From Candidatus Borrarchaeum weybense (lineage in GTDB: Archaea > Asgardarchaeota > Sifarchaeia > Borrarchaeales > Borrarchaeaceae), in the NCBI GenBank assembly GCA_019057385.1, contig JAHQJS010000007.1, positions 256,001-320,000 of the forward strand: a DNA stretch of 64,000 nt, read 5' to 3'. The position numbers and the translations under genes are program-made. The notes beneath the pieces are model-generated. The model was not told the DNA's origin, did not search any database, and saw only the letters and a program-made list of their open reading frames with translations. Each line of letters starts with the position of its first letter. The first letter of the stretch is position 1. Below are positions 18,161 through 55,979 of the stretch, piece after piece.

Positions 18161-18455
18161 CATACCACCTTTATTTTACCTTTCATTTTCATTATATAAA
18201 TTGCTAGAAGGTATGATTAAGTAGGAATCTCGAATTTCATAGAGTTAATACGTTGGATAGAATTTTGTCGTATAAAATCTAATTGATTTTTGGATCAATT
18301 AATACTTTCGTTAGTCTCTGCAAACTATGTCTGTCATTTAAATGACTTATTTTCTTTTTAAAGATGATATAGTTTTCTATAATATGTTGTCCTTAAATAA
18401 TATTCTAAATTATTGCTCTTAAGCACGTAAATACAATTATTAGGAGGGCAACTAA

Positions 18456-18485
18456 ATGGATCCGGGCGGAAATTGGCCATGGTAA
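18456..18485 (+). CDS. 9-aa micropeptide MDPGGNWPW (family member 1)
   Basis: AGGAGGG, 7 nt, then ATG GAT CCG GGC GGA AAT TGG CCA TGG TAA; two paralogues in the window. Confidence 0.75.
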   Translation: MDPGGNWPW

Positions 18486-18864
18486 GATCTAGTAGAAGTA
18501 TTTCTTCAAATCTTTTTTCCACAATTTCTTATTTAATTTCATTTCTCTCTCAATTTTTTATTATTCACGACATACGTTTTTTAATGTTGCAGAAGTAGTT
18601 GCTGTTGATTTCATAAAATAAAACTACGAAACCATTGATTTTATTTTAATGAAATGCATAAAACGGACTTCAAGCTATTTTTTCATCAACACCTCCAATA
18701 ATATGAGATAAATCTGAAGCAGTAATTGTTTTAAATATCACAACTTAGTAAGATATCGATTGATCTTCTGAATTATTTAGATTTGATTCATAATTAGGTC
18801 AGATTAGAATAACAAAAGATCATAGTTCTCAGTTTCAAAATAATTTCTCTTTAGGTGGTTTAAG

Positions 18865-20016
18865 ATGAAACCTCCAGCAACTCGAATGAAAGACATAAAT
18901 CCTTCTTTAATTCGAAGATTATTTGATTTAGCACAAGGAATAGAAGGTATTATCAGTTTAGGCATTGGAGAACCAGATTTTGATACACCTGAACATATCA
19001 AAAATGCAGCAAAACAAGCGTTAGATGATAATTTTACACATTATACGCCAGTTCCAGGAACATTAGAACTTCGTGTAGCTATTGCTGATTATCTTAATGA
19101 AGCGTATGGCCTTGATTATAAACCTGAATCTGAGATTGTTCTTACATGTGGAGCGACAGAAGCTCTTCATGATATCATGCTTGCGTACGTGAAAGGTGAT
19201 GAGGTACTTGTTCCCGATCCTGGTTTTTTAGGGTATCCTGAATATGTTAGAATGGCAGAAGGAAAACCCGTCTGGTATCCGTGTCCAGAAAAGAATGGAT
19301 TTCAACCTGATTTAGATACTCTAAACGAACTCGTCACTAAAAAAACAGTGATGATTATCATAAATAGTCCTTGTAACCCAACTGGAGCTGTGTTTGAAAG
19401 AAAAACGCTTGAAGGCATTGCAGAAATCGCAATAGACAATGATCTTCTCATTGTTACTGATGAAGTCTACGAAAAATTTATTTATGAGGGAAAACACATC
19501 CCTATAGCGTCATTAGGTGTAGCAGACCGCACAATACTGGTCAATGGTTTCAGCAAAACATTCTCAATGACGGGATGGAGGCTTGGGTATATTTGCGGCG
19601 ATGCAGAAGTCATAAACGCTGTTAATATAGCGCATATGTTCACAACAGTAACAACGCCGAGTTTTGCTCAAAAAGCAGCATTAACTGCCTTAAAAGGACC
19701 AAAAGAAAGCATAAAGGAAATGAAAGATGAATATAGATGGCGTAGAGATTTTTTTGTAAAGGAATTAAATACAATTGAAAACATCTCCTGTATAATACCA
19801 AACGGAGCCTTTTACGCATTCCCTAACATTTCAGCATTTGGAAAAACATCCGTAGAGTTCTCAGAATATCTAATTGAAAAAGCAAAAGTCGTTACAGTAC
19901 CAGGAAATGCTTTTGGTAGCAATATAGGTGAAGGTCACGTCCGTATGTCGTATGCATGCACAAGAGAAAATTTAAAAGAGGCGCTGAGTCGCATAAAAGA
20001 CGTTTTAAGTATTTAA
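18865..20016 (+). CDS. Class I/II PLP-dependent (aspartate-type) aminotransferase
   Basis: GEPDF, NSPCNPTG, DEVY, FSKTFSMTGWRLG. Confidence 0.93.
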   Translation: MKPPATRMKDINPSLIRRLFDLAQGIEGIISLGIGEPDFDTPEHIKNAAKQALDDNFTHYTPVPGTLELRVAIADYLNEAYGLDYKPESEIVLTCGATEALHDIMLAYVKGDEVLVPDPGFLGYPEYVRMAEGKPVWYPCPEKNGFQPDLDTLNELVTKKTVMIIINSPCNPTGAVFERKTLEGIAEIAIDNDLLIVTDEVYEKFIYEGKHIPIASLGVADRTILVNGFSKTFSMTGWRLGYICGDAEVINAVNIAHMFTTVTTPSFAQKAALTALKGPKESIKEMKDEYRWRRDFFVKELNTIENISCIIPNGAFYAFPNISAFGKTSVEFSEYLIEKAKVVTVPGNAFGSNIGEGHVRMSYACTRENLKEALSRIKDVLSI

Positions 20017-20237
20017 AGCAATAGTAGAGTTTTAAAAGTAGAGTTGTCAATATATGCTGCTCTTAATTCCCTGACTCCAAAAACTGAGTTTCGCTGCCCT
20101 TATACAATCTCGTTTAAATTCTTTTTTTGTTTTGGTCGTTGTATACTTTTCGGTCTCTATAGATTTCTTTCTATAATGATTTTACTTTCATTTATCTCTC
20201 TCTAAACGTTTTAAACATGGACGCGATAGTAAAGTAG

Positions 20238-20543
20238 GTGATAAAAATAGTTTCCAAAAAAATAATCTCGACAATTTCCAAGGATCAAACGGAAAAAGAA
20301 TTTTATCGGCATAGTCGGGATAAAAGTGAGTTACAAATCTCAACAGAAGAGTATTTATATGACCTACTTATACACCATGGTCCTATGACACGTGGGGAAA
20401 TCGTAAAACTCACAAAATTACCTCGTACAACAATATATGATCACTTGATCAAACTTATTCTAAAGGATCGAGTGATACGTTTTAGTAAACTTGGTAAAAA
20501 GCCAGGAAGACCTAAAGTTTATTTTAAGGCCTTAAGGTTTTAA
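20238..20543 (+). CDS. Small winged-helix (TrmB-like HTH) DNA-binding protein
   Basis: GPMTRGEIVKLTKLPRTTIYDHL...GRPKVYF. Confidence 0.8.
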   Translation: MIKIVSKKIISTISKDQTEKEFYRHSRDKSELQISTEEYLYDLLIHHGPMTRGEIVKLTKLPRTTIYDHLIKLILKDRVIRFSKLGKKPGRPKVYFKALRF

Positions 20544-20771
20544 GGCTTAACGCATACTTTTCTTTATTTTTGAGTTATAGAGTCTTTCGTAGTCTATAGC
20601 ATTAAATCTGGACTCTAATCAAGCCTTCTTTTCCAATAAATCCAGAAAATTAATTACTGTTTTCTTAATTTCGGTGAAATAGGTTGCTCAAGGTATTGTC
20701 GATTGCTGTCAAAAAGTGAAAAAGTAAAAAAGGCTGAAAGTTTCTAAGTATGCTCTATAGGTGAAATCTAA

Positions 20772-21929
20772 ATGACTATATCTTCAGATGAACTTTCTAT
20801 TAATGAACAAGAAATCATTAAGTTAGCCCAAGAGTTAGTAAAAATCCCAAGCGAAAATCAACCTGGTAATGAAAAAGCAATCGGAGAATACATAGCTACT
20901 TGGCTAAAAAATAAGGGTCTTCCTGCTCAATTACAAGAAGTTGAAAAAGATCGTTTTAATGTCATAAGTTCGATTAAAGGAGAAGGACCTGCACTACTTT
21001 TATGCGGACATATGGACACGGTTCCAGTCCCAAATCCCGCAGAATGGACATATGATCCTTTTGCAGGGGAAATAAAAGACGGATATCTCTTTGGTCGCGG
21101 TTCATTAGATATGAAAGGAAGTTTAGCTTGCATGCTCACGGCATTTGTTGCTCTTAAGGAAGTCGAAGAAGAACTTTCCTCAGATGTTGTCTTTTTAGCG
21201 ACCGTAGACGAAGAAATTGCAACAAAAGGCGCAAAAAAGGCAATGGAGGCTTCTGATATCAGAAGAGTAAAGCATGGCATTATCGCTGAGCCTACTGACC
21301 TTAACCCTGTAATAGTTCAAAAGGGTCACTGTTGGCTAAAGATAAAAACACGTGGTGTTGCTGCTCATGGTGCAATTCCTGAACGTGGCGTGAATGCAAT
21401 AATGAACATGTATCCTGTTCTTTCACGAATTCAGGAGTTGGATTTCGGCAAGGGTGACCACCCACTCGTTAGTGGAACAACAGTCAATATTGGATTAATA
21501 AACGGAGGCGTCAAAATAAACATGGTGCCAGATTCGTGTGAAACATCTCTTGACTTCAGATTTCCCCCAGGAGTTGCTTCCGAATCTATCCTTGGTAAAA
21601 TAACCACACTTCTAGAAGAACTAAAAGCTGAAGACAAAGAATTAGATGCAAAGATTGAAGTAATTAAGTGTAGTGACCCTGTTGAAGTTGAAAGAGACGC
21701 ACCGATAGTAACGCTATTACTTAAGGCTATGGATAAGGTACTTGGAAGTCATAGTGAACCACTTGGCGTGCCTTATTATACTGATGCATCCGCCTTAAGA
21801 GGCATTCCTATAGTGCTTTTAGGTCCAGGAGAGCCAGGATATGCTCATCAAAAAGATGAAAGAATTAAAATAAGCAGTATGCTGCCTGCTGCAAAGATTT
21901 ATGCGATGCTTCCTTTATTGCAAACCTAA
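20772..21929 (+). CDS. M20 family deacylase (ArgE/DapE-like)
   Basis: GHMDTVP, GRGSLDMKG, DEE, AEPT, AHQKDE. Confidence 0.92.
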   Translation: MTISSDELSINEQEIIKLAQELVKIPSENQPGNEKAIGEYIATWLKNKGLPAQLQEVEKDRFNVISSIKGEGPALLLCGHMDTVPVPNPAEWTYDPFAGEIKDGYLFGRGSLDMKGSLACMLTAFVALKEVEEELSSDVVFLATVDEEIATKGAKKAMEASDIRRVKHGIIAEPTDLNPVIVQKGHCWLKIKTRGVAAHGAIPERGVNAIMNMYPVLSRIQELDFGKGDHPLVSGTTVNIGLINGGVKINMVPDSCETSLDFRFPPGVASESILGKITTLLEELKAEDKELDAKIEVIKCSDPVEVERDAPIVTLLLKAMDKVLGSHSEPLGVPYYTDASALRGIPIVLLGPGEPGYAHQKDERIKISSMLPAAKIYAMLPLLQT

Positions 21930-21935
21930 TTTCAC

Positions 21936-24900
21936 TCACTTTTTTATGTTCACAAAATCTTCTTCTAAAACCTTATCCATCGTATCAACTAAGACATCCG
22001 CATTTTCTTTTGAAAACACAAGAGGAGGTTTAATCTTAATTGTGGAAGGCCATTTTTTAGGGCCATCTACACTTAACAAGATACCATGTTCTTTCATGCG
22101 TTCAACAACATAAGTAGCTTGTTTAGGTGCTGGTTCTAGGGTTTCTCGATTCAATACTAGTTCCACACCAATAAATAATCCCACCCCTCTAACATCTCCA
22201 ATGATACGGTGTTTATCCATGAGTTTTTTCAATCTATCCTTTAAATAATTGCCAACTATTAAGGCGTTTTCTTGCAATTGTTCATTTTTAATAACATCTA
22301 ATACTGCAAGTCCAACAGCACAGGAGACAGGGTTGCCCCCGAAAGTGTTGAACCATTCCATTCCCGTATTGAATGAGTTTACAATTTCAGGTGTGGTGAC
22401 AACAGCAGATAAAGGATGACCATTCCCCATAGGTTTACCCATTGTAACTATATCAGGAACCACGTTTTGAGTTTGAAATCCCCAAAAATGTGTTCCAACT
22501 CGACCAAAACCAACTTGAACTTCGTCTGCTATACAAACTCCACCTGCTTCCCTAATATGTCGGAATGCTTCTTGAAGATAATTGTTAGGAAACACCATTT
22601 GACCAGCACAGCTCATTATAGATTCACAAAGAAACGCAGCAACTCCTTTCCCTTCATTTTGGATTTTTTGGATCGTTTTCTTCACATCTTCTGCATACTT
22701 CTTCCCTGCATCAGCATCCTGCACTTTATATTCTCCACGATATACATCAGGTATGGTTACCTTATGAACATAAGGTGGGGGACCTTCGCCTCCAGGACCA
22801 TCGAATTTGTACGGGCTGATATCAATTAATGAACCTGTGTTTCCATGATATGCATGATCGATAACAATTAAATCGCGTTGTTTAGTATGAGTTCGTGCTA
22901 ATCGCAGGGCGAGCTCATTTGCTTCACTTCCACTATTAACGAAAAAACAAACACTTAATGGTTCTGGTAAGGTCTCACAGATACGTTGAGCATATTTAAT
23001 AAGATTATCATGTAAATAACGAGTATTGGTATTTAGGACAGCTGCTTGCTGTTTTAACGCTTTTACTACAGTTGGATGGCAATGACCGACATGGCAAACA
23101 TTATTTACGCAATCTAGATATGGTCGACCAGACTGATTGTAAAGGTATTGTTTATAGCCTCTAACAATTTTGAGAGGCTTTTTATACGAAATGCTAAGTG
23201 AAGGGGCTATCATTTGCTCCCTAAAATTGAGAATCTCATCTTTAGTCAAAGTTTCTTCTGGAAAAGACTCCTCTGGAATCTTTAGAATCAGATTTGGATC
23301 AGGGCAAATACTTAGCCAAATATCTCTTTGACTTTCGGATATCACGCCAGGAAAGTCTCCTTTTCTCCCTAACATATCTGTTATCACTTGAAAATGTAAA
23401 TGTGGTGGCCATCCTCCATTATGCTCAATAGATCCAACGTGTGCGAGTAGTTCCCCTTTCTTGATAATCATTCCTTTTTCAATATCATTCAACGATTCTG
23501 GGCTCAAATGTCCATATAGAGTAAAAAATTTTAAATTTCCTTCATTTATTTCATGCTCTAAGATAATAGTAGGACCGTAATCAAGAGACCCTTCATTATT
23601 TTGAAAACTATGTATTCTACCCTCCAACGGCGCATATATTGACGAATTAGGTTTCAGAAAGAGATCAACACCAAGGTGGATTGTCCGATAATCAACCCCT
23701 TCATCGCTTTCTGATCTAAATAATTCTTCTGTATAAATATCCCGTGCTTCATTATATTGACCAATGCCAACTTCTGCATTAGAACTCTTCATTTTATTGA
23801 AAAGTAATTCCTTAAGTGCACCTTTGTCCGTAAAATCGAATAAATCACTTAATTCAAGGCTCCCTACACTGAGATCAAATACAATGTGAGGAATGCTAGT
23901 AAAGTTGCTTCCAAGTATTGATCCAAATTCTTTACGATGTAATTTAATCCAGTCAACAATCTCTTTACTTTGAGGACAAGGATTCATTTTACAAGCATAG
24001 CGGAAAACGTAATTAGAAAATCTAGGATGAACGTCTTTAAGTAACTTTAAAGTCTCCCACGCTGGTTTTTCAGAGACTTTGAGGTATTTATTTTCTGGTT
24101 CAATTTTCTGCTGGTATGCTGCGATACTAACACTCATACAGAGTCTTGTACATATCAAATTAAAGAGCAACTCTAATTCAAGTTCATTTAATGGATAGAC
24201 TGAATGATAACCATTAATAACATGTGCTGCTTCTTTGATTGGATTTTTTTTCCCCAAAATAGCATAGGTTGTTGCTACAGCGAGTTCAAATATAGTATGG
24301 CTATAAACCATATCTCCAAAATCTATAATTCCAAATTGGTATTGATTGGGTGATTTTCCTCGATTAACAATCACATTGTAATCATTAAAGTCATTATGTA
24401 TTACACTAGTTCTTAAATTTGATAAATTGGGAAGCACATTTATTTTGTATTCATTAAGGAAATGCTCTACTATCAGGCGCTTTTCTAGATCAGAGATGTG
24501 TTCTTTGTATTTATTTATAATGTTATAAGCAAGTTTTAAATCCCAATAAAGCTTGCGATTGGCTGCTGTATGATTGAATGATTCAAGAAGCTTCGAAGTT
24601 TCACCCACAAAACGACCAAAATCATAAAGTAACTCTTTATTATGAGGATTAACTTTTGCAAAAACCTTTCCAGGAATAAAAGTCACTAATCTTACGAAAT
24701 GAGATGTCTCATCATCCTTTTGATAAACTGCAATTAACTCACTTGATTTCGTAAGTGATACTCGCGGATAATTTCCAGAATCATCAGGACTAGTTAAATG
24801 CAGCATAGCTTTGTTTTGTAAATCAAGTATCTCCTCTTTCTCGAATTTATTAGCAATTTTGAAGACGTATTTTTTATCCTCTTCAGTTACTACAAGAAAA

Positions 24901-25016
24901 TTCTGATCACGTTCACTCGGAAGTTCCTGAATTAATCCTGTTATACCGTATAATTCATTTATCAATTTCAGAACTTCTGAATCGGATAAACTGGGACGTT
25001 TTGGTTTACTTAACAA
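21936..25016 (-). CDS. Fusion of an APH-like kinase, an M23-like domain and a class III aminotransferase/phospho-lyase
   Basis: IHNDFNDYN and IIDFGD (kinase); HLGVD and PHLHFQ (M23); DEVQVGFGR and TMGKPMGNG (class III). Confidence 0.88.
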
Positions 25017-25193
25017 AATAAAACCTCCAACAAGATCGATATAGTGGTCTAAGTTATGTAATAAGTATTATGTAGTGGAGAGGTTAAGTTTGGATTTTGT
25101 CTGGTCTAACTATAGAACAATGCTAAATAGCGAAAAGACTGAAACACTCTGGAATAATTTTTTAGATAAGTTAGAACCAAAAAAAAAGAGGGA

Positions 25194-25856
25194 TTACGGA
25201 TCTTTCCTTTTCTGATAAAGCTTGATATTGTAGGAAACCAGTGTTGCGACAGAAGCAAAAGCGATTAGGATTGTGCCAAGACAGAATCTTCTTCCTGTCC
25301 TTTCAGTTAGATCTGCATTGGTATATATTAAGTGAAAATAAAGTGTATCGGATTCACCAAAAGTATGCTTAAAAAGGATTCCTGTATCGTAGTCCCACCA
25401 GTATTTGTAGACTGTACCATATTCAGTAATTTCAAGATATGCTGCTTTGTAATTGACCCCCTCATACTTGTGAGTCTTTATTGTGACGTCGTCATTCGAT
25501 TGTATTAAAGACACTGGGTAAATAAAAGGCCAAAGTTCAGAAGAATCCATATAGGTTACTTCATCAATGATAGTTTCGGTAGTACCATCATTTTTTTCAC
25601 CAACCCTTGTATGATCAACCTTCAAGTCATCCGCCCGAATCTCAAGAATCTTAAATTCATCGGAAACGCTTGGATAGAGTACCATTGGGGATGGTGGTGA
25701 AGTATCCCAACGAATTTCGTCATTTACTTTAAGATTTCCCCAGTCAGTATCAGCAACAGAATTTGACGCTGTGCTACTTACAAGAACAATTAGGAAAACT
25801 CCGATTATACTTATGAGATATTTTTTCTGCAATATTCTCATAGAAGTCCCCCTCAC
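25194..25856 (-). CDS. Secreted or membrane-anchored hypothetical protein
   Basis: N-terminal signal peptide, WDYDTGIL motif, C-terminal TM with a basic tail. Confidence 0.7.
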   Translation of the reverse strand: MRGTSMRILQKKYLISIIGVFLIVLVSSTASNSVADTDWGNLKVNDEIRWDTSPPSPMVLYPSVSDEFKILEIRADDLKVDHTRVGEKNDGTTETIIDEVTYMDSSELWPFIYPVSLIQSNDDVTIKTHKYEGVNYKAAYLEITEYGTVYKYWWDYDTGILFKHTFGESDTLYFHLIYTNADLTERTGRRFCLGTILIAFASVATLVSYNIKLYQKRKDP

Positions 25857-26049
25857 TGTTTAAAAAAACTCTAATTGGAAATTATATTGATATTATGCCT
25901 TTTTTAATATAAAAATGTACATAGCATCAGTATCAAAATGCTTCAATTAGACATAAAGATTCTAATTCAATGACCTCTAACGGAAGTATCAATAAGGCAG
26001 GATGGTTCACTATTCTTAAATAGAACAATAGGAATAACTTTGGATAAGT

Positions 26050-26862
26050 TTGCCTGAAACACCGAGCGTGATTTGGATGCTAATCATTCTTTCAGGATTG
26101 CCAAGTTCTGGGAAATCAACATTAGTAAATGAAATAGCAAAAATTCTAGAACTCGACCTTTCGATAAAGACCATAATGATTGAATCAGACGGGATTAGAA
26201 ATATGATCCCCTCATATCGAGAACAACGTTTTAACCCAGATCATGAACCTGTTGTAAGAGCAGCAATGTTTGAACTAATTAAGCATTTTCTAGAGCAAGA
26301 TTATATTGTGATTAACGATGACATGAATTACTATAAATCTATGAGACATGATCTAAGGGAAATTGCTTTAGAAATGAACGTTCCTTTTGCAATATTATAT
26401 GTTTCTACTCCAAGAGAAGTAGCATTATCTTGGAATGAAAAACGCGGTCTTCCAATACCTCAAGAAGTTATTGAAGATGCCTTCAACAAATTCGATATTC
26501 CTGGTAAAGATTATGAGTGGGATAGACCATTATTAGCAGTTGATTTAAGTGTTGTCAATCCTAAGACTGCAGCTAAAGAAGCAGTTAATCTTGTTAGAGA
26601 TCTTTTATTAAAACCAAGTATAAGAGAAGCAAAAACTGTTGTAGAGCCATCGGATGAAGAAAAGCAGAAAGAAGCTATCGACCAACTTACCAGAAAAATA
26701 ATATCAGAAACAATAGTTTATAAAAAGAATGAGGAACTTGCAAAAAACTTGAGCGAAGTTCGAAGAGAGTTCGTAAAGAATGCAATAAAAAACAAACTGA
26801 CCTTAGATGAAGTGAATGTAAAATTTAAAGAATTAGTCGATAAGGCTGTACAAAATATTTGA
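26050..26862 (+). CDS. pstK: O-phosphoseryl-tRNA(Sec) kinase (PSTK/Kti12-like)
   Basis: GLPSSGKST, DDMNYYKSMR and YEWDRP; adjacent to selB; the start may be ATG about 27 nt downstream. Confidence 0.85.
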   Translation: MPETPSVIWMLIILSGLPSSGKSTLVNEIAKILELDLSIKTIMIESDGIRNMIPSYREQRFNPDHEPVVRAAMFELIKHFLEQDYIVINDDMNYYKSMRHDLREIALEMNVPFAILYVSTPREVALSWNEKRGLPIPQEVIEDAFNKFDIPGKDYEWDRPLLAVDLSVVNPKTAAKEAVNLVRDLLLKPSIREAKTVVEPSDEEKQKEAIDQLTRKIISETIVYKKNEELAKNLSEVRREFVKNAIKNKLTLDEVNVKFKELVDKAVQNI

Positions 26863-26900
26863 ATGAATAAGCAATCAGATCGGTAAATAGGGCGATTTTC

Positions 26901-28295
26901 TTGAGACTTATACCAGTTCATGTCGGACTTTTTGGACATATTGATCATGGTAAGACTGCCATAGCTCGTATTCTCTCAGAAAAGATTTCCACTGCTGGCT
27001 TGGACAAACATCCACAGGCTCAAGAAAGAGGTATCTCAATAGATTTGGGATTTACAGCTTTTAATCTAGATCCGTATCGAGTGACATTAGTAGATGCACC
27101 AGGACATGCTGATCTAATTCGAAGTGTAGTTGCAGGTGCGAACATTATAGATGCTGCAATGCTTGTAATTGCAGCTGATGAAGGACCAAAACCGCAAACA
27201 GGGGAACATATCCTAATTTTGGACAGTTTTAGTATCTCAAAAGCACTTATTATTATAAACAAAATTGATCTTGTTGAGAAATCACGTGTTAACGCCGTTG
27301 AAAGATCAATTAAGGCTCTTCTAAAAGGAACAATACTAGAGAATTCACCTATAGTTGGTGTTTCTGCTAAAACAGGAGAAGGTACTAAAAGCATTAAAGA
27401 AGCGTTACTCGAACTTCTTAAAAAACCTGTTCGAGAAGTTAAGGGACCATTCAAAATGCCGATTGACCATGCATTTCATATTAAAGGTGCCGGTACAGTT
27501 ATGACCGGAACGGTTCATCGCGGAACAATAAATATTGGTGAAGTAGCTGAAATAATGCCCTTGGAAATTCAAGGAAAAATAAAATCAATTCAGACATTTG
27601 GCGAAAACCTGCAAAGTGCAGTTGCTGGAGATCGAGTTGGGATAGCAATTCCAGGTGTCCAGGCCAGAGTAATTTACCGAGGTTGCTATTTATGTTCACC
27701 GGGTTCTCTGTCATCGACAGATACAATTTTAGCGCGATTAAAAGTTAACAAATTCTTCAAATTCAACCTTTCTCCTCGTATGAATGTCCATTTAACGATT
27801 GGAACACCAACGGTTGCCGGGGTGATTTATCCTTTCCAAAAAGATGACGATTACAATGTAGTATTAGATCAAGTGAGTGCAAATCACGAGTTTTTTGCAT
27901 ACGTCATTCTTAATTCATTAATTGTCTCAGAATCAGGTGATCCTATTCTTATATCTCGACTAGATCTTCCTCCTACTAACTTACGAATTGCAGCTAGTGG
28001 AAAAGTCATTAATGCGAATCCAAGTGATTTTTCATTATATCAGCTTTCAATTAAGGAAGGAAATATTCGTATTCAGTCTCACAAAGAAGAAGTTATTATT
28101 GATAATTTAGCGCGTTCGCAGTTTGGGGCAAAGAATCTCATCGGTAAACAAGTCGAAACCATAACAGGACGATCAGGAAGGATCATATCATCCTTTGGAG
28201 GAAAAGGTGCTGTAATAGCAAAATTTAGTGAAAGACCGAATGAAAGTGCAATTGTGTATCTTAAAAAATATAAAAGGTATAAATTAGGGACATAA
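26901..28295 (+). CDS. selB: Selenocysteine-specific elongation factor, archaeal/eukaryote type
   Basis: GHIDHGKT, ERGISIDLGF, DAPGH and NKID; C-terminal domain IV (RIISSFGGKG) without bacterial wHTH repeats. Confidence 0.92.
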   Translation: MRLIPVHVGLFGHIDHGKTAIARILSEKISTAGLDKHPQAQERGISIDLGFTAFNLDPYRVTLVDAPGHADLIRSVVAGANIIDAAMLVIAADEGPKPQTGEHILILDSFSISKALIIINKIDLVEKSRVNAVERSIKALLKGTILENSPIVGVSAKTGEGTKSIKEALLELLKKPVREVKGPFKMPIDHAFHIKGAGTVMTGTVHRGTINIGEVAEIMPLEIQGKIKSIQTFGENLQSAVAGDRVGIAIPGVQARVIYRGCYLCSPGSLSSTDTILARLKVNKFFKFNLSPRMNVHLTIGTPTVAGVIYPFQKDDDYNVVLDQVSANHEFFAYVILNSLIVSESGDPILISRLDLPPTNLRIAASGKVINANPSDFSLYQLSIKEGNIRIQSHKEEVIIDNLARSQFGAKNLIGKQVETITGRSGRIISSFGGKGAVIAKFSERPNESAIVYLKKYKRYKLGT

Positions 28296-28354
28296 TTTGA
28301 TACTTAAAAAAACAGTGGTGGTCGTCTTATACAAGAAAAAACGCTAATGAATGT

Positions 28355-28384
28355 TTACCATGGAAAAGGTATACCTGGATCCAT
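28355..28384 (-). CDS. 9-aa micropeptide MDPGIPFPW (family member 2)
   Basis: Minus strand: AGGAGG, 8 nt, then ATG GAT CCA GGT ATA CCT TTT CCA TGG TAA. Confidence 0.75.
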   Translation of the reverse strand: MDPGIPFPW

Positions 28385-28590
28385 TAAGTCATCCTCCTAC
28401 ATATTTTAGCATTTTTATTAAACTTGGAGGGTGGTTTCAAGCAAAACTTATTAAGACCACGCAATTTAGAGACAGATATTTGCTTAAAAAAGAAAATCTT
28501 GTTTCTTTAAAACCAACTAATTATAATAGAGACATCAGTGAAAGTATTAACTAACGAAAAACAACGATATGAACAAAGGAGCAATTTATC

Positions 28591-29853: not shown

Positions 29854-29973
29854 GATAAGAAGGTTTTCTCATTAGCATATATAAATTCTTATTGATGCAA
29901 TGTTAACTCTTTGCTTTCATTATAGCAGTTTCATAATCTTTTTGAATCAATTTGATAATTTAATTTTGGAGGT

Positions 29974-31638: not shown

Positions 31639-33180
31639 ATGAAAGAAACAGTTAAATTAAAAATTTGGCGATTTGACCCCCAGAAGGAAACTCATGGTCA
31701 TTGGCAAGATTTTGAAGTTCCATATAACGAAGGGATGAGGGTGCTCGATGCACTGTGGCACATCTATGAAGAGATCGACCCTACCCTTGCGTTTCGGTTT
31801 GGATGTCGCGCTGGGCAGTGCGGCTCATGTGCTATGATAATTAATGGCAAACCAGAACTTTCCTGCAAAACTGAATTATTACCCGACAAGGAATATGCTT
31901 TGGAACCGCTCCCTACCTTTGCAATTACCAAAGATTTGGCTGTTGATTTCACAGAACCTTTCGAGAAAATGAAAGAAATACGTTCAGATTTTGCAAAAGC
32001 GTCTGAAGAAGCACAAACCTTCACTATGGATGAAATAAAGGACTTACTAGAGTATCATAAATGCATAGAATGTTATAATTGCATTGCTGCATGCCCAAGC
32101 GTGGCTGAAAGTTGGAATGAATTTATGGGACCAGCTTATATGCGAAAATATGCCCAAGTTCAGTTTGATCCAAGACGTAATAAAGATGTTTTTGAAAAGG
32201 CCCTTGAAAATGGGCTATTTCGATGTACCACCTGCAAAGCCTGTGTTGAAGCATGCCCCAAAGATATCGATCTAGCTCACAAAGCGATTGAAAAACTGCG
32301 ATCAGTTGTGGTTAAACACGGTCTTGGTCCCTTAGAAGGACAAAAAGAATTCATTGAACGCGTTAGATCGTACGGTAAGGCAGTTACTATTGAAAAGCAA
32401 CCGTTGACAGGAGAGGATGGCCAATTTGGTGAATACGTTGGTGAGGGCGAACCTGTTATCTTTTTTACCGGTTGTATGATGGATTTACGCCTCCAAAAAA
32501 TCGGTAAAGATTTAATAGATGTGTTGAACGAACTTGGCTATCAAGTGATTATTCCAACAGATCAAGTATGTTGTGGTAGCCCAGCCATACGTTCTGGTGA
32601 TTTTGAATTAGGTATTCACCAATTTAAGAAAAATGTGGAAATTTTAGAACGATATGGGGTTAAAGATGTAATTGTAGGTTGTCCTGGTTGCGGAATTACC
32701 TTAAAAGATGACTATTCAAGATGGGCAAAGGAAATTCTTAAACGATCGCTTAAATTTAAAACCTATGATATAAATGAATTTATTTACGAAAAAGTAATGA
32801 AAATGCCCCCTCCAGAAAACCCCCTTGAACTAAAAGTAACTTATCACGACCCATGCCACTTAAATCGAGGTCAGGGGGTAAAACAGGAACCCCGTGATTT
32901 GATTAAATTTACAGGCGCGGAAATAGTGGAAATGAAAGAAGCGGATCGTTGCTGTGGCGCGGGCGGAGGAGTACGTGCTGGCATAAGAGATTTTTCTAGG
33001 TTAATTGCTTCAAGAAAAGCTCAACACATAAAGGAAACGAAAGCTGAAGCTATTGTCACTCCATGCCCATTCTGTATTTTTCAATTGAAAGAATTAGTGA
33101 AAAATGAAGGAATAGACATGGAGGTAGTGCATACTGCTACTTTATTAAATCGTTTGCTTTGTAAATCCAGTAAAAATTAG
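31639..33180 (+). CDS. tfrB: Thiol:fumarate reductase subunit B (SdhB Fe-S plus two CCG domains)
   Basis: CRAGQCGSC, two CxxCxxCxxxCP, VCCGSP, YHDPCHL, CCGAGGG. Confidence 0.88.
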   Translation: MKETVKLKIWRFDPQKETHGHWQDFEVPYNEGMRVLDALWHIYEEIDPTLAFRFGCRAGQCGSCAMIINGKPELSCKTELLPDKEYALEPLPTFAITKDLAVDFTEPFEKMKEIRSDFAKASEEAQTFTMDEIKDLLEYHKCIECYNCIAACPSVAESWNEFMGPAYMRKYAQVQFDPRRNKDVFEKALENGLFRCTTCKACVEACPKDIDLAHKAIEKLRSVVVKHGLGPLEGQKEFIERVRSYGKAVTIEKQPLTGEDGQFGEYVGEGEPVIFFTGCMMDLRLQKIGKDLIDVLNELGYQVIIPTDQVCCGSPAIRSGDFELGIHQFKKNVEILERYGVKDVIVGCPGCGITLKDDYSRWAKEILKRSLKFKTYDINEFIYEKVMKMPPPENPLELKVTYHDPCHLNRGQGVKQEPRDLIKFTGAEIVEMKEADRCCGAGGGVRAGIRDFSRLIASRKAQHIKETKAEAIVTPCPFCIFQLKELVKNEGIDMEVVHTATLLNRLLCKSSKN

Positions 33181-33222
33181 CCAAACATAAAAGATTATAC
33201 TTTTTTGCTAACCCTCTGAAGG

Positions 33223-34587
33223 TCACCATCCTAAGATGCTCGATATAAAAAGGATATACAAAAACACTAGCGTGAAATTGAGAGCACTCAGTATACCTCC
33301 GACTCTCATAAAATCAAGGAAAGAAAACTTGATCTTTTCTCTTTTAAACATGAGGAAAATGAGCACGGAATTTACGCCGCCAAGAGGGCTTAAAATATCT
33401 CCTAAATTCACGGCAAGGATTACAGACCATATAACAGATGCTGGGGTTGTTATTCCTGCTGATGCAACTACCGATGGGATAATGTACAACAACATTAATG
33501 CAATACTGACGCTATCAACAAAAGCCGCAATTACTCCACTAGTCACGATTAATGTAAGCCAAATGAGAATCTTATTCCCTCCCGAAAGCCTTCCTATGGC
33601 TTCCCCTATCAGATTTAACAAACCAACACTCGCAACTCCTCCTACAATTATGAAAACACCAAAGAAAAAGATTATTGTGCTCCAATCTATGCGTTTTATG
33701 ATCTTATCTATGTTAGAATATTCCCCGGTAATAAGGATTAGGGTAATTGAACCTATTAATGCAATCAAGAAGAATGGAATTCCTAAAAATCCTGCAAGAA
33801 TAAATCCTATAATTAGTGCTGCAAAGAAGAGAAAGAATCTTTTTACCAAAGCAGTATTCTTTACCACATCTGCAGCTTCTAGTGCGAGTATAATTTCAAT
33901 TTCACTTTCTGTAATGCATTCCCCGACGCAAACAAACCTATCACGGACTAGATGCTTACCTATAACTAAGTTAATCCCAAAAATTAGTAATGAAAAAGGA
34001 AAAGCAATCAATAGAAATCTATCATATGAAAGATAATATTCTGGTGCGAAAGAGAAGTTTGATGCTATGATAATATTCGTTAGACTGCTAGTTATTGAGG
34101 CACAACTAGCAGCATTCGAAGACACGACTTCAGTTAAAAGGAAAGGCATAGGATCAAGTTTCATATTTTTAACTAAAACCAATGTAATGCCGCCTACGAT
34201 CAAAAAAGCAGATTCATCTCCCAAAAACGCTGATAAAATAAAAACAAGTGCATTTGTATAGAACAAAATCTTCTCCGTGTCCCCTTTCGTAAGTTTTATG
34301 ATCGTTACAGTTAAATAATTAAGTATTCCAGAACTTTTTGAGACTTCTACGATGACTAAAAGAGATAGGATTATAATAATGGCACCCCAATCCACGAGTT
34401 CAGTAAGAACCTCTTTTTCAGTGAAAATTTCAGTTCCAGCAAAGAAATAGATATATGCAACAGTCATGGTGACTGCTGCTCCACCAATAGCAACTAGCGT
34501 TTTGTTTATTTTGTCAGAAGCAATAAGAATATATGCAATGATCATAATTACTGTAAAAGGAATCATAACAAGCAAATATGCCACCAA
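33223..34587 (-). CDS. ArsB/NhaD/SLC13-family ion or carboxylate permease
   Basis: Many TM helices; IDWSTIIFFFGVFIIV; AVNLGD. Confidence 0.8.
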   Translation of the reverse strand: MVAYLLVMIPFTVIMIIAYILIASDKINKTLVAIGGAAVTMTVAYIYFFAGTEIFTEKEVLTELVDWGAIIIILSLLVIVEVSKSSGILNYLTVTIIKLTKGDTEKILFYTNALVFILSAFLGDESAFLIVGGITLVLVKNMKLDPMPFLLTEVVSSNAASCASITSSLTNIIIASNFSFAPEYYLSYDRFLLIAFPFSLLIFGINLVIGKHLVRDRFVCVGECITESEIEIILALEAADVVKNTALVKRFFLFFAALIIGFILAGFLGIPFFLIALIGSITLILITGEYSNIDKIIKRIDWSTIIFFFGVFIIVGGVASVGLLNLIGEAIGRLSGGNKILIWLTLIVTSGVIAAFVDSVSIALMLLYIIPSVVASAGITTPASVIWSVILAVNLGDILSPLGGVNSVLIFLMFKREKIKFSFLDFMRVGGILSALNFTLVFLYILFISSILGW

Positions 34588-34829
34588 TGATTTCTAGTTA
34601 TTTTTATCCAATCAAAATGGATTAGAGAGATAATTTGAACATCTTTAATTCAAAGGGTTTTGTCCCTGACGGATTGGGCAGATAGATATTCATTTCAAAA
34701 TATATTGATTATTTTGCAGAGTTATTATTTCAGTTTATTTTATGAATTCTTATATTCTAAATTGTCTATATTATTTGTTTTAAATAGAATTCAGAATCTC
34801 TTCATTTAGGAAGAGTTGGAGAGAATCGG

Positions 34830-35651
34830 TTGGACGAATTAGTCGAATTAACTAATGCTCTTAAAGACCTTGGCCTCACAGAATACGAGGCAAAAGCTTA
34901 CATAACTCTAGTTAGATTAAACAGTGGTAATGCTAGTGAAATTGCACATGAATCTGATGTTCCACGTCCAAAAATATACGAGACTCTAAGTGAATTGGAA
35001 AAAAAAGATTTAGTTGAGATTCAATACGGAAAACCTCGACGTTATAGACCAACAACCCCAGAAGTAGCAATAGAAAAACTAGCTCAAAGATATCACGATG
35101 CGACAGATCTTGCGATTAAGGAACTTAAGAGTTTGAAAAAAATTGAAACTGGTCGTCCTGAAGAAATTATATGGACTCTTCGGGGAGGAGAACAAATTGT
35201 TAATCGAATACAAGCAATGCTTCCAAGTGCTAAATCTGAAATTATTATGGGTATTCCTATTGAGGATCTTCCTTTATTTATCGAAACAATTTCGGATTTA
35301 TGCTCTCAAGGTATTAGAATAAGACTTACTTTTGGAAAAGATGACCTCCCAAGACTGACTGCACTCCCGTTAGATCCAAATCTAGAAGTAGGAATTATCC
35401 CAATCACACTTCCAGATGAAAATGCTCTGCCGTTTACACATCCTGGTCGCCATATAATACCGCCAGGCTCACGCATTGTCGTAATAGATGAAAATGAGAT
35501 TTTATTTACATTTCCTAGTGTTCAAGAAAGTGAGTTTGGGATATGGGCAAAGAGCCCCGGGCTTGTGTTTATTTTTAAATTCTTTTATGAACAATTTTGG
35601 AATTTTGCTATTCCATTAGAAGAAAGACTTAAAAAAACGGATTTAAGTTAA
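34830..35651 (+). CDS. TrmB-family transcriptional regulator
   Basis: LGLTEYEAKAY...SDVPRPKIYETL...GKPRRY. Confidence 0.92.
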   Translation: MDELVELTNALKDLGLTEYEAKAYITLVRLNSGNASEIAHESDVPRPKIYETLSELEKKDLVEIQYGKPRRYRPTTPEVAIEKLAQRYHDATDLAIKELKSLKKIETGRPEEIIWTLRGGEQIVNRIQAMLPSAKSEIIMGIPIEDLPLFIETISDLCSQGIRIRLTFGKDDLPRLTALPLDPNLEVGIIPITLPDENALPFTHPGRHIIPPGSRIVVIDENEILFTFPSVQESEFGIWAKSPGLVFIFKFFYEQFWNFAIPLEERLKKTDLS

Positions 35652-35766
35652 GGTTTACATACGTAAATATAATAAATTTCTTGGAGAATCGTAAGCTAAT
35701 AATGAAAAAATATTTCTATTTCTCAGTTCTCATTAAATTTATTTCAAGTTAAGGAGATAATTCACG

Positions 35767-36912
35767 ATGAAATTGCATGAGTATGAAGCTAAAAAGATAT
35801 TTGCTGAGTATGGCGTCCCTGTTCCAAACGGCGAAATAGCATCTAATTCTGATGAGGTTAAAGCAATCGCTGATCGTCTAAATAGACCAGTGGTTGTCAA
35901 ATCGCAAATTTTAGTTTCTGGGAGAGGCAAAGCAGGCGGAATTAAAATTGCTGAAAAATCAGAAGACGCAAAAACTGTGAGCCAAAGTATTCTGGGTATG
36001 AATATTAAGGGACTCACAGTCGAAAAAGTTCTGGTGGAAGAGAGGCTCAATATTGCTAAAGAGTTTTATTTGAGCATCATTGTAGATCGCAGTGCACGGA
36101 GCTATGTAACCATTACCGCAAAAGAAGGTGGCGTAGATATTGAGCAATTAGCATTAGAAAAGCCTGATCAAATACTCAAAGTTTACATCCAGCCGTACTT
36201 TGGAATTCGAACTTTTGAAGTAAGAAAACTCGCGCAATTTCTTACATCCTCAAGAGAATTACAGAAAGAGATTATTTCTATAATAAACAAGTTTTTTGAA
36301 GTTGTTACTGCATATGACTGCGAACTTATTGAAAGTAATCCGTTGGTATTGACAAAAGAGGGTAAAATTATCGCCGCAGACGCACGAATGATTATTGACG
36401 ACAATTCTTTGTTTCGACATCCTCAATTACAGGATAAGGCTAAAGAAGAGTTACGTGATCTTACTGAGTTTGAATTAAGAGCTAAGGAATTTGGTTTTAG
36501 TTATGTTGATCTTGATGGCAATATTGGAATCATAGCTAATGGAGCTGGCTTGACAATGGCTTCAATGGACATAATTGATTTTTATGGTGGAAGGCCAGCA
36601 AATTTCCTAGATATTGGTGGTGGTGCTCGTGCTGAAAGAATGCTAGAGGCAACAAAATTACTTTTAGAGAACCCTAGAGTAAAAGGTATCCTTGTAAATA
36701 TACTTGGAGGAATTACACGCGGTGATGAAGTAGCACAGGGAATTGTGGACGCGCTTAAAATCACAGCTGTAAATAAGCCGATTGTAATTCGTCTCGTGGG
36801 AACAAGAGAAAAAGAAGGACAAAAAATTCTGGAAGAAGCAGGTATTGAATATCTTAAATCTATGGAAACGGCAGCTAAAAGAATAGTAGAACTTGTCGGT
36901 AGCGGAGGATAA
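35767..36912 (+). CDS. sucC: Succinyl-CoA ligase (ADP-forming) beta subunit
   Basis: MKLHEYEAK, GRGKAGG, NGAGL, PANFLDIGGGA. Confidence 0.95.
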   Translation: MKLHEYEAKKIFAEYGVPVPNGEIASNSDEVKAIADRLNRPVVVKSQILVSGRGKAGGIKIAEKSEDAKTVSQSILGMNIKGLTVEKVLVEERLNIAKEFYLSIIVDRSARSYVTITAKEGGVDIEQLALEKPDQILKVYIQPYFGIRTFEVRKLAQFLTSSRELQKEIISIINKFFEVVTAYDCELIESNPLVLTKEGKIIAADARMIIDDNSLFRHPQLQDKAKEELRDLTEFELRAKEFGFSYVDLDGNIGIIANGAGLTMASMDIIDFYGGRPANFLDIGGGARAERMLEATKLLLENPRVKGILVNILGGITRGDEVAQGIVDALKITAVNKPIVIRLVGTREKEGQKILEEAGIEYLKSMETAAKRIVELVGSGG

Positions 36913-36915
36913 AAA

Positions 36916-37794
36916 ATGACTATTCTAGTTGATAAAAAAACTAAAATTCTTGTTCAAGGGATAACTGGCCGGGAAGGTCAATTTCATACGAAAGTCATGT
37001 TAGACTATGGTACACAAATTGTTGCCGGAGTGACACCTGGTAAGGGTGGACAAGAATTACATGGAATTCCTGTATATGACTATGTTTCAGAAGCTGTTGA
37101 GGAAACACAAGCGACAGCATCGATACTTTTCATACCTGCAAGGTTTGTTGCGGATGCTGTGTATGAAGCTATTGAATCAAATTTAAATCCGATTGTTATT
37201 ATAACTGAAGGCATTCCAATAAGAGATTCCATTGGATTCGTGAACTATGCGCGAGATAAAAATATCGTGATAATAGGTCCAAATTGCCCGGGAATCATTT
37301 CTCCTGAAGAGTGTAAAGTGGGCGTCATGCCTTCTCATGTATTTCGAAAAGGTCCCGTAGGCATTATTGCACGCTCAGGCACACTTTTTTATGAAATCGC
37401 AGCAACATTGACTGATGCTGATTCTAGGTTGGGACAAAGTACCTGTGTTGGTATAGGCGGCGATCCAATAATTGGGAGTGACTTCATTGAAATAGTTCAA
37501 CGATTTCAAGCAGATCCTGAAACAAAGGCTATGGTAATTATCGGTGAAATCGGAGGAGATGCAGAAGAAAGACTTGCAGATTACGTACAGGATCATAAAG
37601 TGAAACCAACTGTTGCCTTTATAGCAGGCAAGACTGCACCGCCAGGTAAGCGAATGGGACATGCAGGTGCTATTATTTCAATGGGTGTAGGTTCTGCTGA
37701 AGGTAAGATCTATCGCTTAAAAGAAACAGGAATTCAAGTAGCAGATGTTCCCTCTGATGTCGCAAAAATTTTAAAAGATGTATTAAGCTTCTGA
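36916..37794 (+). CDS. sucD: Succinyl-CoA ligase alpha subunit
   Basis: QGITG, GPNCPG, RMGHAGA. Confidence 0.95.
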   Translation: MTILVDKKTKILVQGITGREGQFHTKVMLDYGTQIVAGVTPGKGGQELHGIPVYDYVSEAVEETQATASILFIPARFVADAVYEAIESNLNPIVIITEGIPIRDSIGFVNYARDKNIVIIGPNCPGIISPEECKVGVMPSHVFRKGPVGIIARSGTLFYEIAATLTDADSRLGQSTCVGIGGDPIIGSDFIEIVQRFQADPETKAMVIIGEIGGDAEERLADYVQDHKVKPTVAFIAGKTAPPGKRMGHAGAIISMGVGSAEGKIYRLKETGIQVADVPSDVAKILKDVLSF

Positions 37795-37840
37795 CGAAAT
37801 TGTTATCTAGTACATCTCTTATTATTTATGAATGGGTAAT

Positions 37841-38176
37841 TCAGGTACTAAAAATATCGCTTCCGAGCCGAATTGTTGCTAGTTTTTCTGATATATTGTC
37901 ACAAACACCCATATATTCGCCTATTAGGTTAAAAAGCAGTCTCCGGTCATTCACATTAAAAGGTAAAAGATTTTCGTTCTGACTATAAATGCCACCAAGT
38001 TCACCAAGTAAGAAATGAACAATTTCTATCAATTTCTCGATAATTTGTTCCTCTGCTTGTAGCCAAGTTTTTAGAAGAGCAAATTTTGTTTGTATTCCCA
38101 TCTTTTGTTCCATTTCTTTCTTCTTGATAGTCATCTTAATCATAATCGATTTTTTAGGCATTAATTTAAGCACCAC
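37841..38176 (-). CDS. Small helical hypothetical protein, start uncertain
   Basis: ORF fills the intergenic gap; no recognised motif. Confidence 0.5.
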   Translation of the reverse strand: MVLKLMPKKSIMIKMTIKKKEMEQKMGIQTKFALLKTWLQAEEQIIEKLIEIVHFLLGELGGIYSQNENLLPFNVNDRRLLFNLIGEYMGVCDNISEKLATIRLGSDIFST

Positions 38177-38394
38177 GAAGTCGCTAATACATCCTAAATT
38201 GTATCAATTGGTAATAAGAAGTAAAGAATTCACTGAACAAAAACTGTTTTTTCATTTAAGCGACAGTCTTTACGTTTAAACGTATGTTCAGGTCTAAAAT
38301 TCTGTGGTCTTTTAAATTATTGTTCTAAAAAGACATTATGTAAGTATTTTGTATTTTTAATTTCTTTTAAAAACAAAAAACGGAGTGTGGAAAA

Positions 38395-38424
38395 ATGGAT
38401 CCAGGATGGCCTTGGCCATATTAA
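38395..38424 (+). CDS. 9-aa micropeptide MDPGWPWPY (family member 3)
   Basis: GGAGTG, 7 nt, then ATG GAT CCA GGA TGG CCT TGG CCA TAT TAA. Confidence 0.75.
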   Translation: MDPGWPWPY

Positions 38425-38440
38425 ATTTCAAAAGACACAT

Positions 38441-38971
38441 CTAAGCTTTTTCTTCTTGATCTCTTTTAACAAGTTTTATCAATCTTTTTACTATTGTTTC
38501 GGTGTCAATTCTCTCTAAGAATCTGTTTGTAAGTTCGATTACAGACACTCCATCTTTTTCTTTAAGTTCAATTATGTCATTTTTCACAAGTAAATTTAAA
38601 TGGGACATTATATCTACCTTTTCTCCCCTTTCTTCGCGTAAAAGTTGAGTTGTAAGTTGTTCTTTTCTTATTACATGCAGTACAATGAGTGCTAATGTTG
38701 CACGTACTGATTTAGGTAAAAATGACTTTACTAGTTCTTTTTCCTGAAGCGTTTCAATTTTTGCGTCTGAAATCATCAACATGAATCGTTTCGTTACAGG
38801 GTTATAATGAAGTTTAAGTGGAAAATCTTTGATTCTTTCTTCAAGCTGTGAAAGGAGGAAAAGAGAATACTCGAAATCCTTTATTCTTGTAAGGGATCCA
38901 ATATCTTTAACAGAAACCCCTTCAAATCCTCTTAAAAATAATAAAGTCTCTAGCATTTCAAGATGGCTCAT
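38441..38971 (-). CDS. scpB: ScpB-like (kite) tandem wHTH protein
   Basis: Lies after smc and scpA; LETLLF and ATLALI patterns; divergent. Confidence 0.65.
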   Translation of the reverse strand: MSHLEMLETLLFLRGFEGVSVKDIGSLTRIKDFEYSLFLLSQLEERIKDFPLKLHYNPVTKRFMLMISDAKIETLQEKELVKSFLPKSVRATLALIVLHVIRKEQLTTQLLREERGEKVDIMSHLNLLVKNDIIELKEKDGVSVIELTNRFLERIDTETIVKRLIKLVKRDQEEKA

Positions 38972-55801: not shown

Positions 55802-55979
55802 ATTCTCACAGAGATCTTTTTTATTTTTAAATGTAATGGTTCTTTGTCAAAACGTGTGGACTTTATATATTATTTTAAATTGTTGCTTCTACCCCCCAAG
55901 AAACTCGCACTTTAGTATAAGAGATGTGTTTGACTTTTTGCCCGCCCATCCCGGGCGGGTTCTCCTTCGGTGAGATATT

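Follow-up and report, generated by a model that had tools for sequence, protein, structure and literature searches.

Nine-codon genes in the window and in the host genome

The stretch of DNA analysed here (the window) is 64,000 nt long and corresponds to positions 256001-320000 of contig C7 in an Asgard archaeal assembly of 4.18 Mb (8 contigs, 37% GC). It carries three 30-nt open reading frames (ORFs), copies 1, 2 and 3, with the predicted products MDPGGNWPW, MDPGIPFPW and MDPGWPWPY (Table 1). All three end in TAA, and a Shine-Dalgarno (SD) sequence, AGGAGG or GGAG, lies 8-9 nt 5' of each ATG. A first-pass annotation of the window had reported these ORFs, and its coordinates, strands, peptides and stop codons were found to be exact and the presence of an upstream SD was confirmed for each. 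It had also suggested a pattern search with shuffled sequence as the control. A degenerate 30-nt pattern gave exactly three matches in the window and none in 100 dinucleotide-preserving shuffles, and ATGGATCCNGG by itself gave three window matches against 0.04 expected. These ORFs very probably belong to a translated peptide gene family under selection.

The annotation had proposed a multigene family with selection on the peptide, of which it had seen only a part, and the remainder of the genome supports this proposal. The host genome holds eight intact copies, namely the three in the window and five others, together with a decayed ninth copy at C7:228540-228566(-) that keeps the upstream motifs and TATA box described below, has lost the SD, the start codon and the frame, and contains indels. 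In the genome collection used, the host family comprises one genus with five species, and the host class one further family. The four congener genomes carry 3, 2, 3 and 7 copies. Further copies, on whose existence the annotation had let its proposal depend, are thus present in the host genome and in all four congeners, and they keep the frame, the length and the SD. Metagenomic contigs of the same lineage add the variants VDPGGSWPW, MDPGGSWPF and MDPATGWPW, and the stretch itself is present in DNA runs from sediment, marsh and soil metagenomes; among RNA runs, none was listed as containing it.

Outside the genus, no family member was found in the single sister-family genome (80% complete). The 395 other genomes of the phylum gave four pattern matches, against six with the reversed control, which is chance level; at least one of the four has an in-frame stop. 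Viral contigs scanned with the family pattern gave no matches, and a search for micro-ORFs that end in aromatic-Pro-aromatic, or that are Trp-rich with an SD, found none besides the family members. As far as searched, the family is therefore restricted to one Asgard genus. This narrow range refers to 400 genomes of the phylum plus the genus and is to be read as "not found in the genomes searched". A full-text literature search on small ORFs and micropeptides in Asgard archaea gave nothing on a nonapeptide family, and no paper on one was found for any other archaea either, in agreement with the annotation, which had recognised no described family.

The host genome also encodes two eukaryote-type actins (C4:895388-896497 and C5:134969-136078; Pfam Actin, 455 bits each), which place it among the Asgard archaea. 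Homologs of one host-genome protein are named "Promethearchaeota archaeon" at NCBI, and the archaeal SelB and PSTK encoded in the window point to the same assignment.

Selection on the encoded peptide

Nineteen copies were aligned at the codon level. Start codons are ATG, GTG or TTG and never CTG, and all three stop codons (TAA, TAG and TGA) occur. In the codons for Pro3, Gly4 and Pro8, the first two bases are invariant (0-0.3 bits of entropy) except for one CTA at codon 8, and the third base takes all four letters (1.4-1.6 bits). Positions 7 and 9 alternate between TGG, TTY, TAY, CTT and ATG, all of which specify aromatic or large hydrophobic residues. In the flanks, the SD columns alone are conserved. 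Over the approximately 27 copies collected, the length is always nine codons, and an SD is present at every intact copy. The fixed length, the interchange of start and stop codons and the variation of the third base together form a coding signature. The synonymous variation at conserved residues, which the annotation had seen in three copies, is thus real and holds throughout the alignment.

The consensus of the products is M-[D/G]-P-[G/A]-x-x-[W/F/L]-[P/L]-[W/F/Y/M]. Position 2 alternates between D and G, even among orthologs, a single A occurs at position 4, and positions 5-6 vary. The annotation had described a fixed MDPG tag followed by a variable Pro/aromatic tail, and both parts of that description need to be revised: the tag is not fixed at positions 2 and 4, and the C-terminal aromatic-Pro-aromatic is as conserved as the head, with the variation lying between them.

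Comparison of syntenic orthologs leads to the same picture. At the larA/aSelB locus the host has MDPGIPFPW and congener G004 has VDPGNHWPW; at the scpB locus MDPGWPWPY in the host corresponds to MGPGPSWPY in G004; and at a locus beside a large protein (described below) MDPGGNWPW in the host corresponds to MDPGGGFPW and LDPGGGWPW in orthologs. In each case the head and the tail are preserved in type and the middle has changed (IPF/NHW, WP/PS and GN/GG). Together, the ortholog and codon patterns show selection on a frame of nine residues in which the head, [D/G]-P-[G/A], and the aromatic-P-aromatic tail are conserved and the middle is free.

RNA-level explanations gained no support. The copies have no Rfam match at the gathering threshold, and their minimum free energy folds are not more stable than those of shuffles (z-scores -3.8 to +1.3, mostly near 0). 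An alignment of the MGPG subtype showed no covariation support for RNA structure, and pairing of the 5' end with the SD/start region is seen in some copies only. The products also lack the hydrophobic helix of at least about 18 residues that is a trait of type I toxins and membrane micro-proteins, as they have 9 residues with three Pro/Gly turns.

Organization of the mini-gene unit

Each mini-gene appears to have an ordinary, strong-looking promoter. The annotation had suggested a separate TATA box for each copy, and a motif resembling a B recognition element and TATA box (BRE/TATA) indeed lies 70-91 nt 5' of the start in all three window copies. Gibbs alignment of the upstream regions returned GYGGNC-YTTAWATAT at distances of 60-108 nt 5' of the start, with 75 nt the commonest. 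The BRE/TATA motif GYGGNCYTTAWATAT is present at many further promoters across the genome, and so it represents the general promoter form of the organism and not a mark of the family. With the transcription start placed at the textbook distance from the TATA box, the 5' untranslated region (UTR) would be ~35-70 nt long.

Two more upstream motifs characterise the family, TTAATAsTTTCACTGAkGTCTC near -163 and ATTTTCTTTTTAAAG near -125. Both recur in paralogs and congeners, with different intervening DNA. A common regulator may act at these candidate sites, and regex scans with the motifs were too loose to delimit a regulon. Downstream, T-runs occur 15-60 nt past the stop in most copies. The T-run of copy 3 lies inside the scpB ORF, so the transcripts of copy 3 and scpB probably overlap. 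The unit as a whole would thus span ~300 nt and consist of two upstream motifs, BRE/TATA, 5' UTR, a strong SD, nine codons and a T-run. A contig from a related population (run X7) skips 95 nt just 3' of copy 1 (18510-18606), which is an indel polymorphism.

Table 1 Positions of the nonapeptide genes, their predicted signals and linked loci (window numbering unless a contig or locus is named).
Feature	Position	Strand	Remarks
Copy 1, nine-codon gene MDPGGNWPW	18456..18485	+	ATG start, TAA stop
Copy 1 SD AGGAGGG	18442..18448	+	8 nt before ATG
Copy 1 BRE/TATA-like motif GTTGTCC TTAAATAA	18386..18400	+	70 nt before start; Gibbs alignment, 19 upstream regions
Copy 1 upstream motif (i) TTAATACTTTCGTTAGTCTCTG	18299-18320	+	Candidate regulator site; recurs at about -163 in paralogs and congeners
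Copy 1 upstream motif (ii) ATTTTCTTTTTAAAG	18349-18363	+	Candidate regulator site
Copy 1 T-run	18513..18518	+	28 nt past stop; likely archaeal terminator
Copy 2, nine-codon gene MDPGIPFPW	28355..28384	-	Between larA-like gene (divergent) and aSelB (convergent)
Copy 2 SD AGGAGG	28393..28398	-	
Copy 2 BRE/TATA-like motif GTGGTC TTAATAAG	28447..28460	-	76 nt before start; Gibbs alignment
Copy 2 upstream motifs	28483..28550	-	(i) TTAATACTTTCACTGATGTCTC 28550-28529; (ii) 28498-28483
Copy 2 T-run	28335..28341	-	14 nt past stop
Copy 3, nine-codon gene MDPGWPWPY	38395..38424	+	Stop 16 nt from stop of convergent scpB
Copy 3 SD GGAG	38382..38385	+	
Copy 3 BRE/TATA-like motif GTGGTC TTTTAAAT	38304..38317	+	91 nt before start; Gibbs alignment
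Copy 3 T-run	38447..38451	+	Within 3' end of convergent scpB ORF
LDPGIPFPW	C3:67870	-	TTG start
MDPGGNWPW	C5:54116	+	TAG stop
VDPGRPWLW	C5:143552	+	GTG start, TGA stop
MGPGGPWPM	C6:861928	-	
MDPGGCWPF	C7:321404-321433 (= window 65404-65433)	-	1.4 kb past window end; weaker SD AGGAAG
Large-protein paralogs	L001:6461-10348 and L002:6131-10042		Contigs C3 and C5
VDPGRPWLW/trpS locus	L003:6001-7105 (= C5:143552-144656) and L061		L061 from congener G002

Genomic context of the loci

Each paralog has a syntenic ortholog in other species. This synteny indicates that the family is not mobile and is older than the split of these species, and a mobile-element reading was rejected on these grounds. The neighbouring genes are mostly unrelated to one another, as the annotation had stated for the window; they include larA and aSelB, scpB, an aminotransferase, comB and trpS, and small ORFs without an assigned family. 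In at least five of the ~10 locus types the next downstream gene is convergent, sometimes just 16-60 nt off. An all-against-all BLAST of the flanking ORFs recovered only orthologous synteny, and tblastn found one recurrent neighbour outside synteny, a large protein with TPR and HExxH regions.

The annotation had seen no modifying enzyme adjacent to any copy. This holds in the window, but not in full elsewhere, where two members flank the pair of TPR/metallopeptidase-like proteins and one subtype heads a major facilitator superfamily (MFS) operon. Tailoring enzymes (radical SAM, YcaO, lanthipeptide, cyclase and other types) were found beside none of the ~10 locus types, and the sole radical SAM gene observed near a copy encodes a tRNA enzyme of the Elp3 type. 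Pfam and NCBIfam scans of the neighbours at all locus types likewise found no receptor of the RopB/Rgg type (RRNPPA, a helix-turn-helix (HTH) plus TPR protein).

The MGPG subtype has a setting of its own. It is the first ORF of a unit that continues with a 76-aa protein and one or more MFS transporters, and the gene for a 535-aa tandem Lrp/AsnC-type regulator lies beside the unit in divergent orientation. A distance of 48 nt separates the MGPG ORF from the start of the next cistron, which is on the same strand. This operon is kept in all five genomes, at two paralogous loci. The 76-aa protein is of no known family and always stands after the MGPG mini-ORF and before the MFS transporters (L050:7721-7951(-), L020, L023, L062-L064). 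In another setting, the VDPGRPWLW copy, which has two Trp codons, is convergent to trpS and lies 28-31 nt from the trpS stop in two species.

Several further features were seen in the window. PSTK (a KTI12-like kinase) and archaeal SelB are adjacent at 26050-28295(+), and this pairing indicates that the organism has selenocysteine machinery. A 25-nt intergenic stretch, AGGATAAGGGTGAGCAGCGTGTGCA, at 60687-60711(+) occurs, together with near-identical flanks, at seven or more genome sites (one each on C3, C5 and C8 and two each on C4 and C7), and it resembles a dispersed repeat or a mobile-element end. At ~55856-55970(+), a very strong BRE/TATA match, GTGGACTTTATATATT, is followed ~90 nt on by a GC-rich, hairpin-like stretch, gcccgcccatcccgggcggg; this region may be a small RNA, and it has no Rfam match at the gathering threshold.

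A large TPR/HExxH protein linked to the family

The recurrent neighbour is a protein of ~1300 aa with exactly two paralogs in the host genome, which are 59% identical. One paralog has a family member 431 nt upstream in divergent orientation, and the other has one 104 nt downstream in convergent orientation. Both arrangements are also found in G001, in G004 and in the metagenome-assembled genome GCA_048940565.1 (L058, L059), and the convergent one also in G003 and in metagenome lineages L053-55 and L060. In at least five genomes, and in every one where this could be checked, a family member adjoins both paralogs. With eight genes in 4.18 Mb, the probability that a family gene falls within 500 nt of any one gene end is ~0.002.

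Searches against Pfam, NCBIfam and PDB sequences gave no match for the large protein, and its homologs, 59-100% identical, all come from the host lineage. A feature search of the ESM Atlas gave just one lead, at 0.79. The model of the N-terminal 845 aa (mean pLDDT, the predicted local distance difference test score, 84) shows 33 helices in a TPR solenoid and matches eukaryotic TPR scaffolds, including Ski3, Ctr9, IFT-A, APC/C subunits and separase (Foldseek E down to 3e-8). Residues 840-1295 are modelled less confidently (mean pLDDT 66) as a beta-sandwich followed by a helical domain with HExxH, and in Foldseek this C-terminal model was matched solely via its beta-sandwich. The sequence HEKFGHGF is invariant, and H-E-x-x-H together with Glu at +15, +17 and +53 is invariant in 16 homologs. 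VIA-align comparison of the helical domain with M1, M3, M32, M61 and thermolysin-type peptidases gave Z values of 6-9; such values are common, so the peptidase reading is provisional and depends on fold and motif. Provisionally, then, the HExxH domain is a candidate gluzincin-like (MA clan) metallopeptidase. The protein is presumably cytoplasmic. No signal-peptide-like N-terminus was seen by eye, and no HTH or other DNA-binding domain was detected in the protein. This lineage-specific protein is of interest by itself in an Asgard genome.

Possible modes of action

That the nonapeptides act in trans as free peptides is plausible, if somewhat short of probable. The nonapeptide would be released unprocessed ("leaderless") and would serve as a small ligand or substrate. 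X-Pro and Pro-X bonds withstand general exopeptidases, and Pro3 and the penultimate Pro would shield both ends of the peptide against such enzymes. Recognition would be through the aromatic-Pro-aromatic-COOH end, with positions 5-6 distinguishing the peptides of the individual paralogs. TPR domains bind short peptide C-termini, as in Hop, PEX5 and the RRNPP receptors, and the large TPR/HExxH protein could be the receptor, or a processing or degrading peptidase. It is the best candidate for a partner, since it is the only recurrent neighbour and is of a protein kind that binds or cuts short peptides; even so, we regard its assignment as partner as doubtful. The MFS transporters of the MGPG operon would offer a way out of the cell for one subtype, and their position is compatible with export. 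Tentatively, these elements may be combined into a peptide regulatory or signalling system in which leaderless nonapeptides are read or turned over by the TPR-metallopeptidase and one subtype is exported by MFS transporters.

Several observations weigh against such a system. The transcription and translation of the genes, and the existence and persistence of the peptides, are predictions. Six of the eight copies have no candidate partner alongside. The two linkages to the large protein may not be independent, as its paralogs may have duplicated together with the peptide gene, and a single duplication could have left the association as a relic, even though the arrangements are not the same. No family member adjoins a third form of the large protein, which is 1335 aa long and encoded on a metagenome contig. 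The peptidase assignment combines a motif with middling Z-scores on the less confident of the two models. If the initial Met is removed, the D/G alternation between orthologs would produce different mature N-termini, and so it would better fit a role of the nascent chain. Finally, D-P-G, G-P-G and a Pro near the stop are among the kinds of residues that slow the ribosome (PMC5499558).

The last two points lead to the main alternative, which we consider possible but on balance unlikely and in which these are translation-sensing mini-ORFs whose function lies in the act of translating and not in the released peptide. The ribosome would pause at M-D/G-P-G and again at aromatic-Pro-aromatic-stop, the pause would be set by aIF5A/polyamine status or by the supply of aromatic aminoacyl-tRNA, and the outcome would be read-through into the antisense of the convergent gene or, in the MGPG operon, exposure of the next SD. 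The exact length of nine codons in ~27 copies would fit a ruler inside the ribosome, conservation is concentrated in residues 1-4 and the last three, and a nascent chain would hardly be affected by the D/G switch at position 2. The pairs of D with a following P or G, the dipeptides PG and GP, and termination are eIF5A-dependent in yeast (PMC5499558), and both D/G-P-G and aromatic-Pro-aromatic-stop belong to these residue classes. Individual loci offer further hints: codons 2-4 of MGPG can pair with the SD of the next cistron (5 bp, invariant and without covariation), the two-Trp copy keeps its short distance from the convergent trpS stop in two species, and several copies stop 16-60 nt from a convergent gene. 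PPW, MAGDIS and TnaC are known short sensor peptides that end near Pro or the stop.

However, at least five of the ~10 locus types have no same-strand downstream gene, and thus the classical cis target is absent there, and T-runs soon after the stop suggest that the transcript ends at that point. At positions 7 and 9, any of W, F, Y, L and M can occur, which argues against a sensor for a single amino acid. The stop context is not conserved (TAA predominates), a conserved alternative RNA structure was not found, and eight copies with their own promoters are hard to square with local regulation. Translation sensing is most apt for the MGPG subtype and possibly for the Trp-rich copy that faces trpS in two species, and it suits poorly the many copies that lack a same-strand target and have a T-run past the stop.

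The annotation had listed modified peptides, signalling peptides and ribosome-arrest peptides as candidates. The latter two keep standing, and modified peptides are the weakest of the three because no modifying enzyme occurs at any of the ~10 locus types. Such minimal precursors of ribosomally synthesised and post-translationally modified peptides (RiPPs) or of cofactors would be altered in trans, for instance at the C-terminal aromatics or by cyclisation, by an enzyme encoded elsewhere. Multiple copies with conserved ends and a variable middle would suit precursors of this kind, the linked HExxH protein could serve as a maturation protease, MFS exporters follow the MGPG subtype, and C-terminal aromatic residues are modified in some known systems. 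Besides the missing tailoring enzymes, nine residues are too few for a leader-plus-core layout, and Cys, Ser and Thr are not conserved, which leaves a RiPP function very unlikely.

It is highly improbable that the 30 nt are not a peptide gene at all and represent instead the core of a small RNA, a DNA site or remnants of a mobile repeat: the copies are GC-rich islands in AT-rich DNA with their own promoter and a terminator-like T-run, and in a few of them the 5' end can pair with the SD/start region, but the three-base periodicity is strict, start and stop codons are interchanged with the frame kept, Rfam gave no match, neither a stable or covarying fold nor terminal repeats are present, the loci are syntenic and not mobile, and viral contigs gave no matches.

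Comparison with known peptide systems

Among described systems, the leaderless communication peptides (LCPs) of Firmicutes come closest. In the SIP/LCP systems read by RopB, ORFs of 8-10 codons encode peptides without a leader (PMC10518010, PMC6565748), and the LCP signal is turned over by the peptidase PepO (PMC10071013). LCPs are also exported, taken up again and autoinducing. As in those systems, an ultra-small ORF (here of nine codons) would encode the mature peptide directly, without a signal or pro-sequence, from its own promoter, which is often divergent from the partner gene; the candidate partner likewise has a putative peptide-binding domain of the TPR type. The differences are considerable. 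The present family is archaeal and no RRNPPA (HTH plus TPR) receptor was found; the candidate partner, a 1300-aa protein with TPR, beta-sandwich and HExxH regions, lacks a DNA-binding domain; the nonapeptides are rich in D, G and P with two aromatics and are not strongly hydrophobic as LCPs are; and there are eight dispersed copies per genome, most without an adjoining partner.

Other systems share single traits with the family. TnaC, the MAGDIS upstream ORF (uORF) of AdoMetDC and the PPW-ending uCC of antizyme inhibitor are also very short, with conserved residues next to the stop, and their Pro, Trp and Asp/Gly motifs are of kinds known to slow peptide-bond formation or termination. Those, however, are uORFs or leaders acting in cis, whereas the mini-genes are mostly stand-alone units facing a convergent gene.

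Phr/Rap, PapR/PlcR and other RRNPP peptides occur in multiple copies with variable "code" residues and are read by TPR proteins. They resemble the nonapeptides as multi-copy short peptides with conserved frames and variable residues; unlike them, they are cut from secreted precursors of 40-50 aa, are always encoded beside their receptor and are not known outside bacteria and phages. Bradykinin (RPPGFSPFR) is a nonapeptide whose prolines guard its ends from exopeptidases and which is turned over by HExxH oligopeptidases. The likeness is one of analogy, namely nine residues, Pro-Gly near the N-terminus and Pro beside an aromatic near the C-terminus; there is no homology, and bradykinin is cut from a large animal precursor.

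Implications

Genes of nine codons are invisible to every gene caller, and comparative sequence here makes a strong case for selection at the level of the peptide. The family can be placed with ultra-small leaderless peptide genes, with a real chance that it is something further removed. It supplies a specific pattern with which other genomes can be searched for hidden families of this kind, and it is small enough for testing, as synthesis of the peptides, expression of the candidate partner and toeprinting of the ORFs are all feasible.

We know of no peptide-ligand system or arrest-peptide sensor of such size described in archaea. Signalling in trans or aIF5A/polyamine-sensing mini-ORFs would, if true, be the first of their kind in archaea, to the best of our knowledge, and in either case the family would be the smallest conserved gene family known to us in archaea. 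If the genes prove to be sensing mini-ORFs, they would be an archaeal counterpart of the eukaryotic PPW and MAGDIS sensors. Asgard archaea are the closest relatives of eukaryotes, and a link between the nonapeptides and a eukaryote-style TPR scaffold in these organisms, if true, would bear on small-peptide regulation near the origin of eukaryotes.

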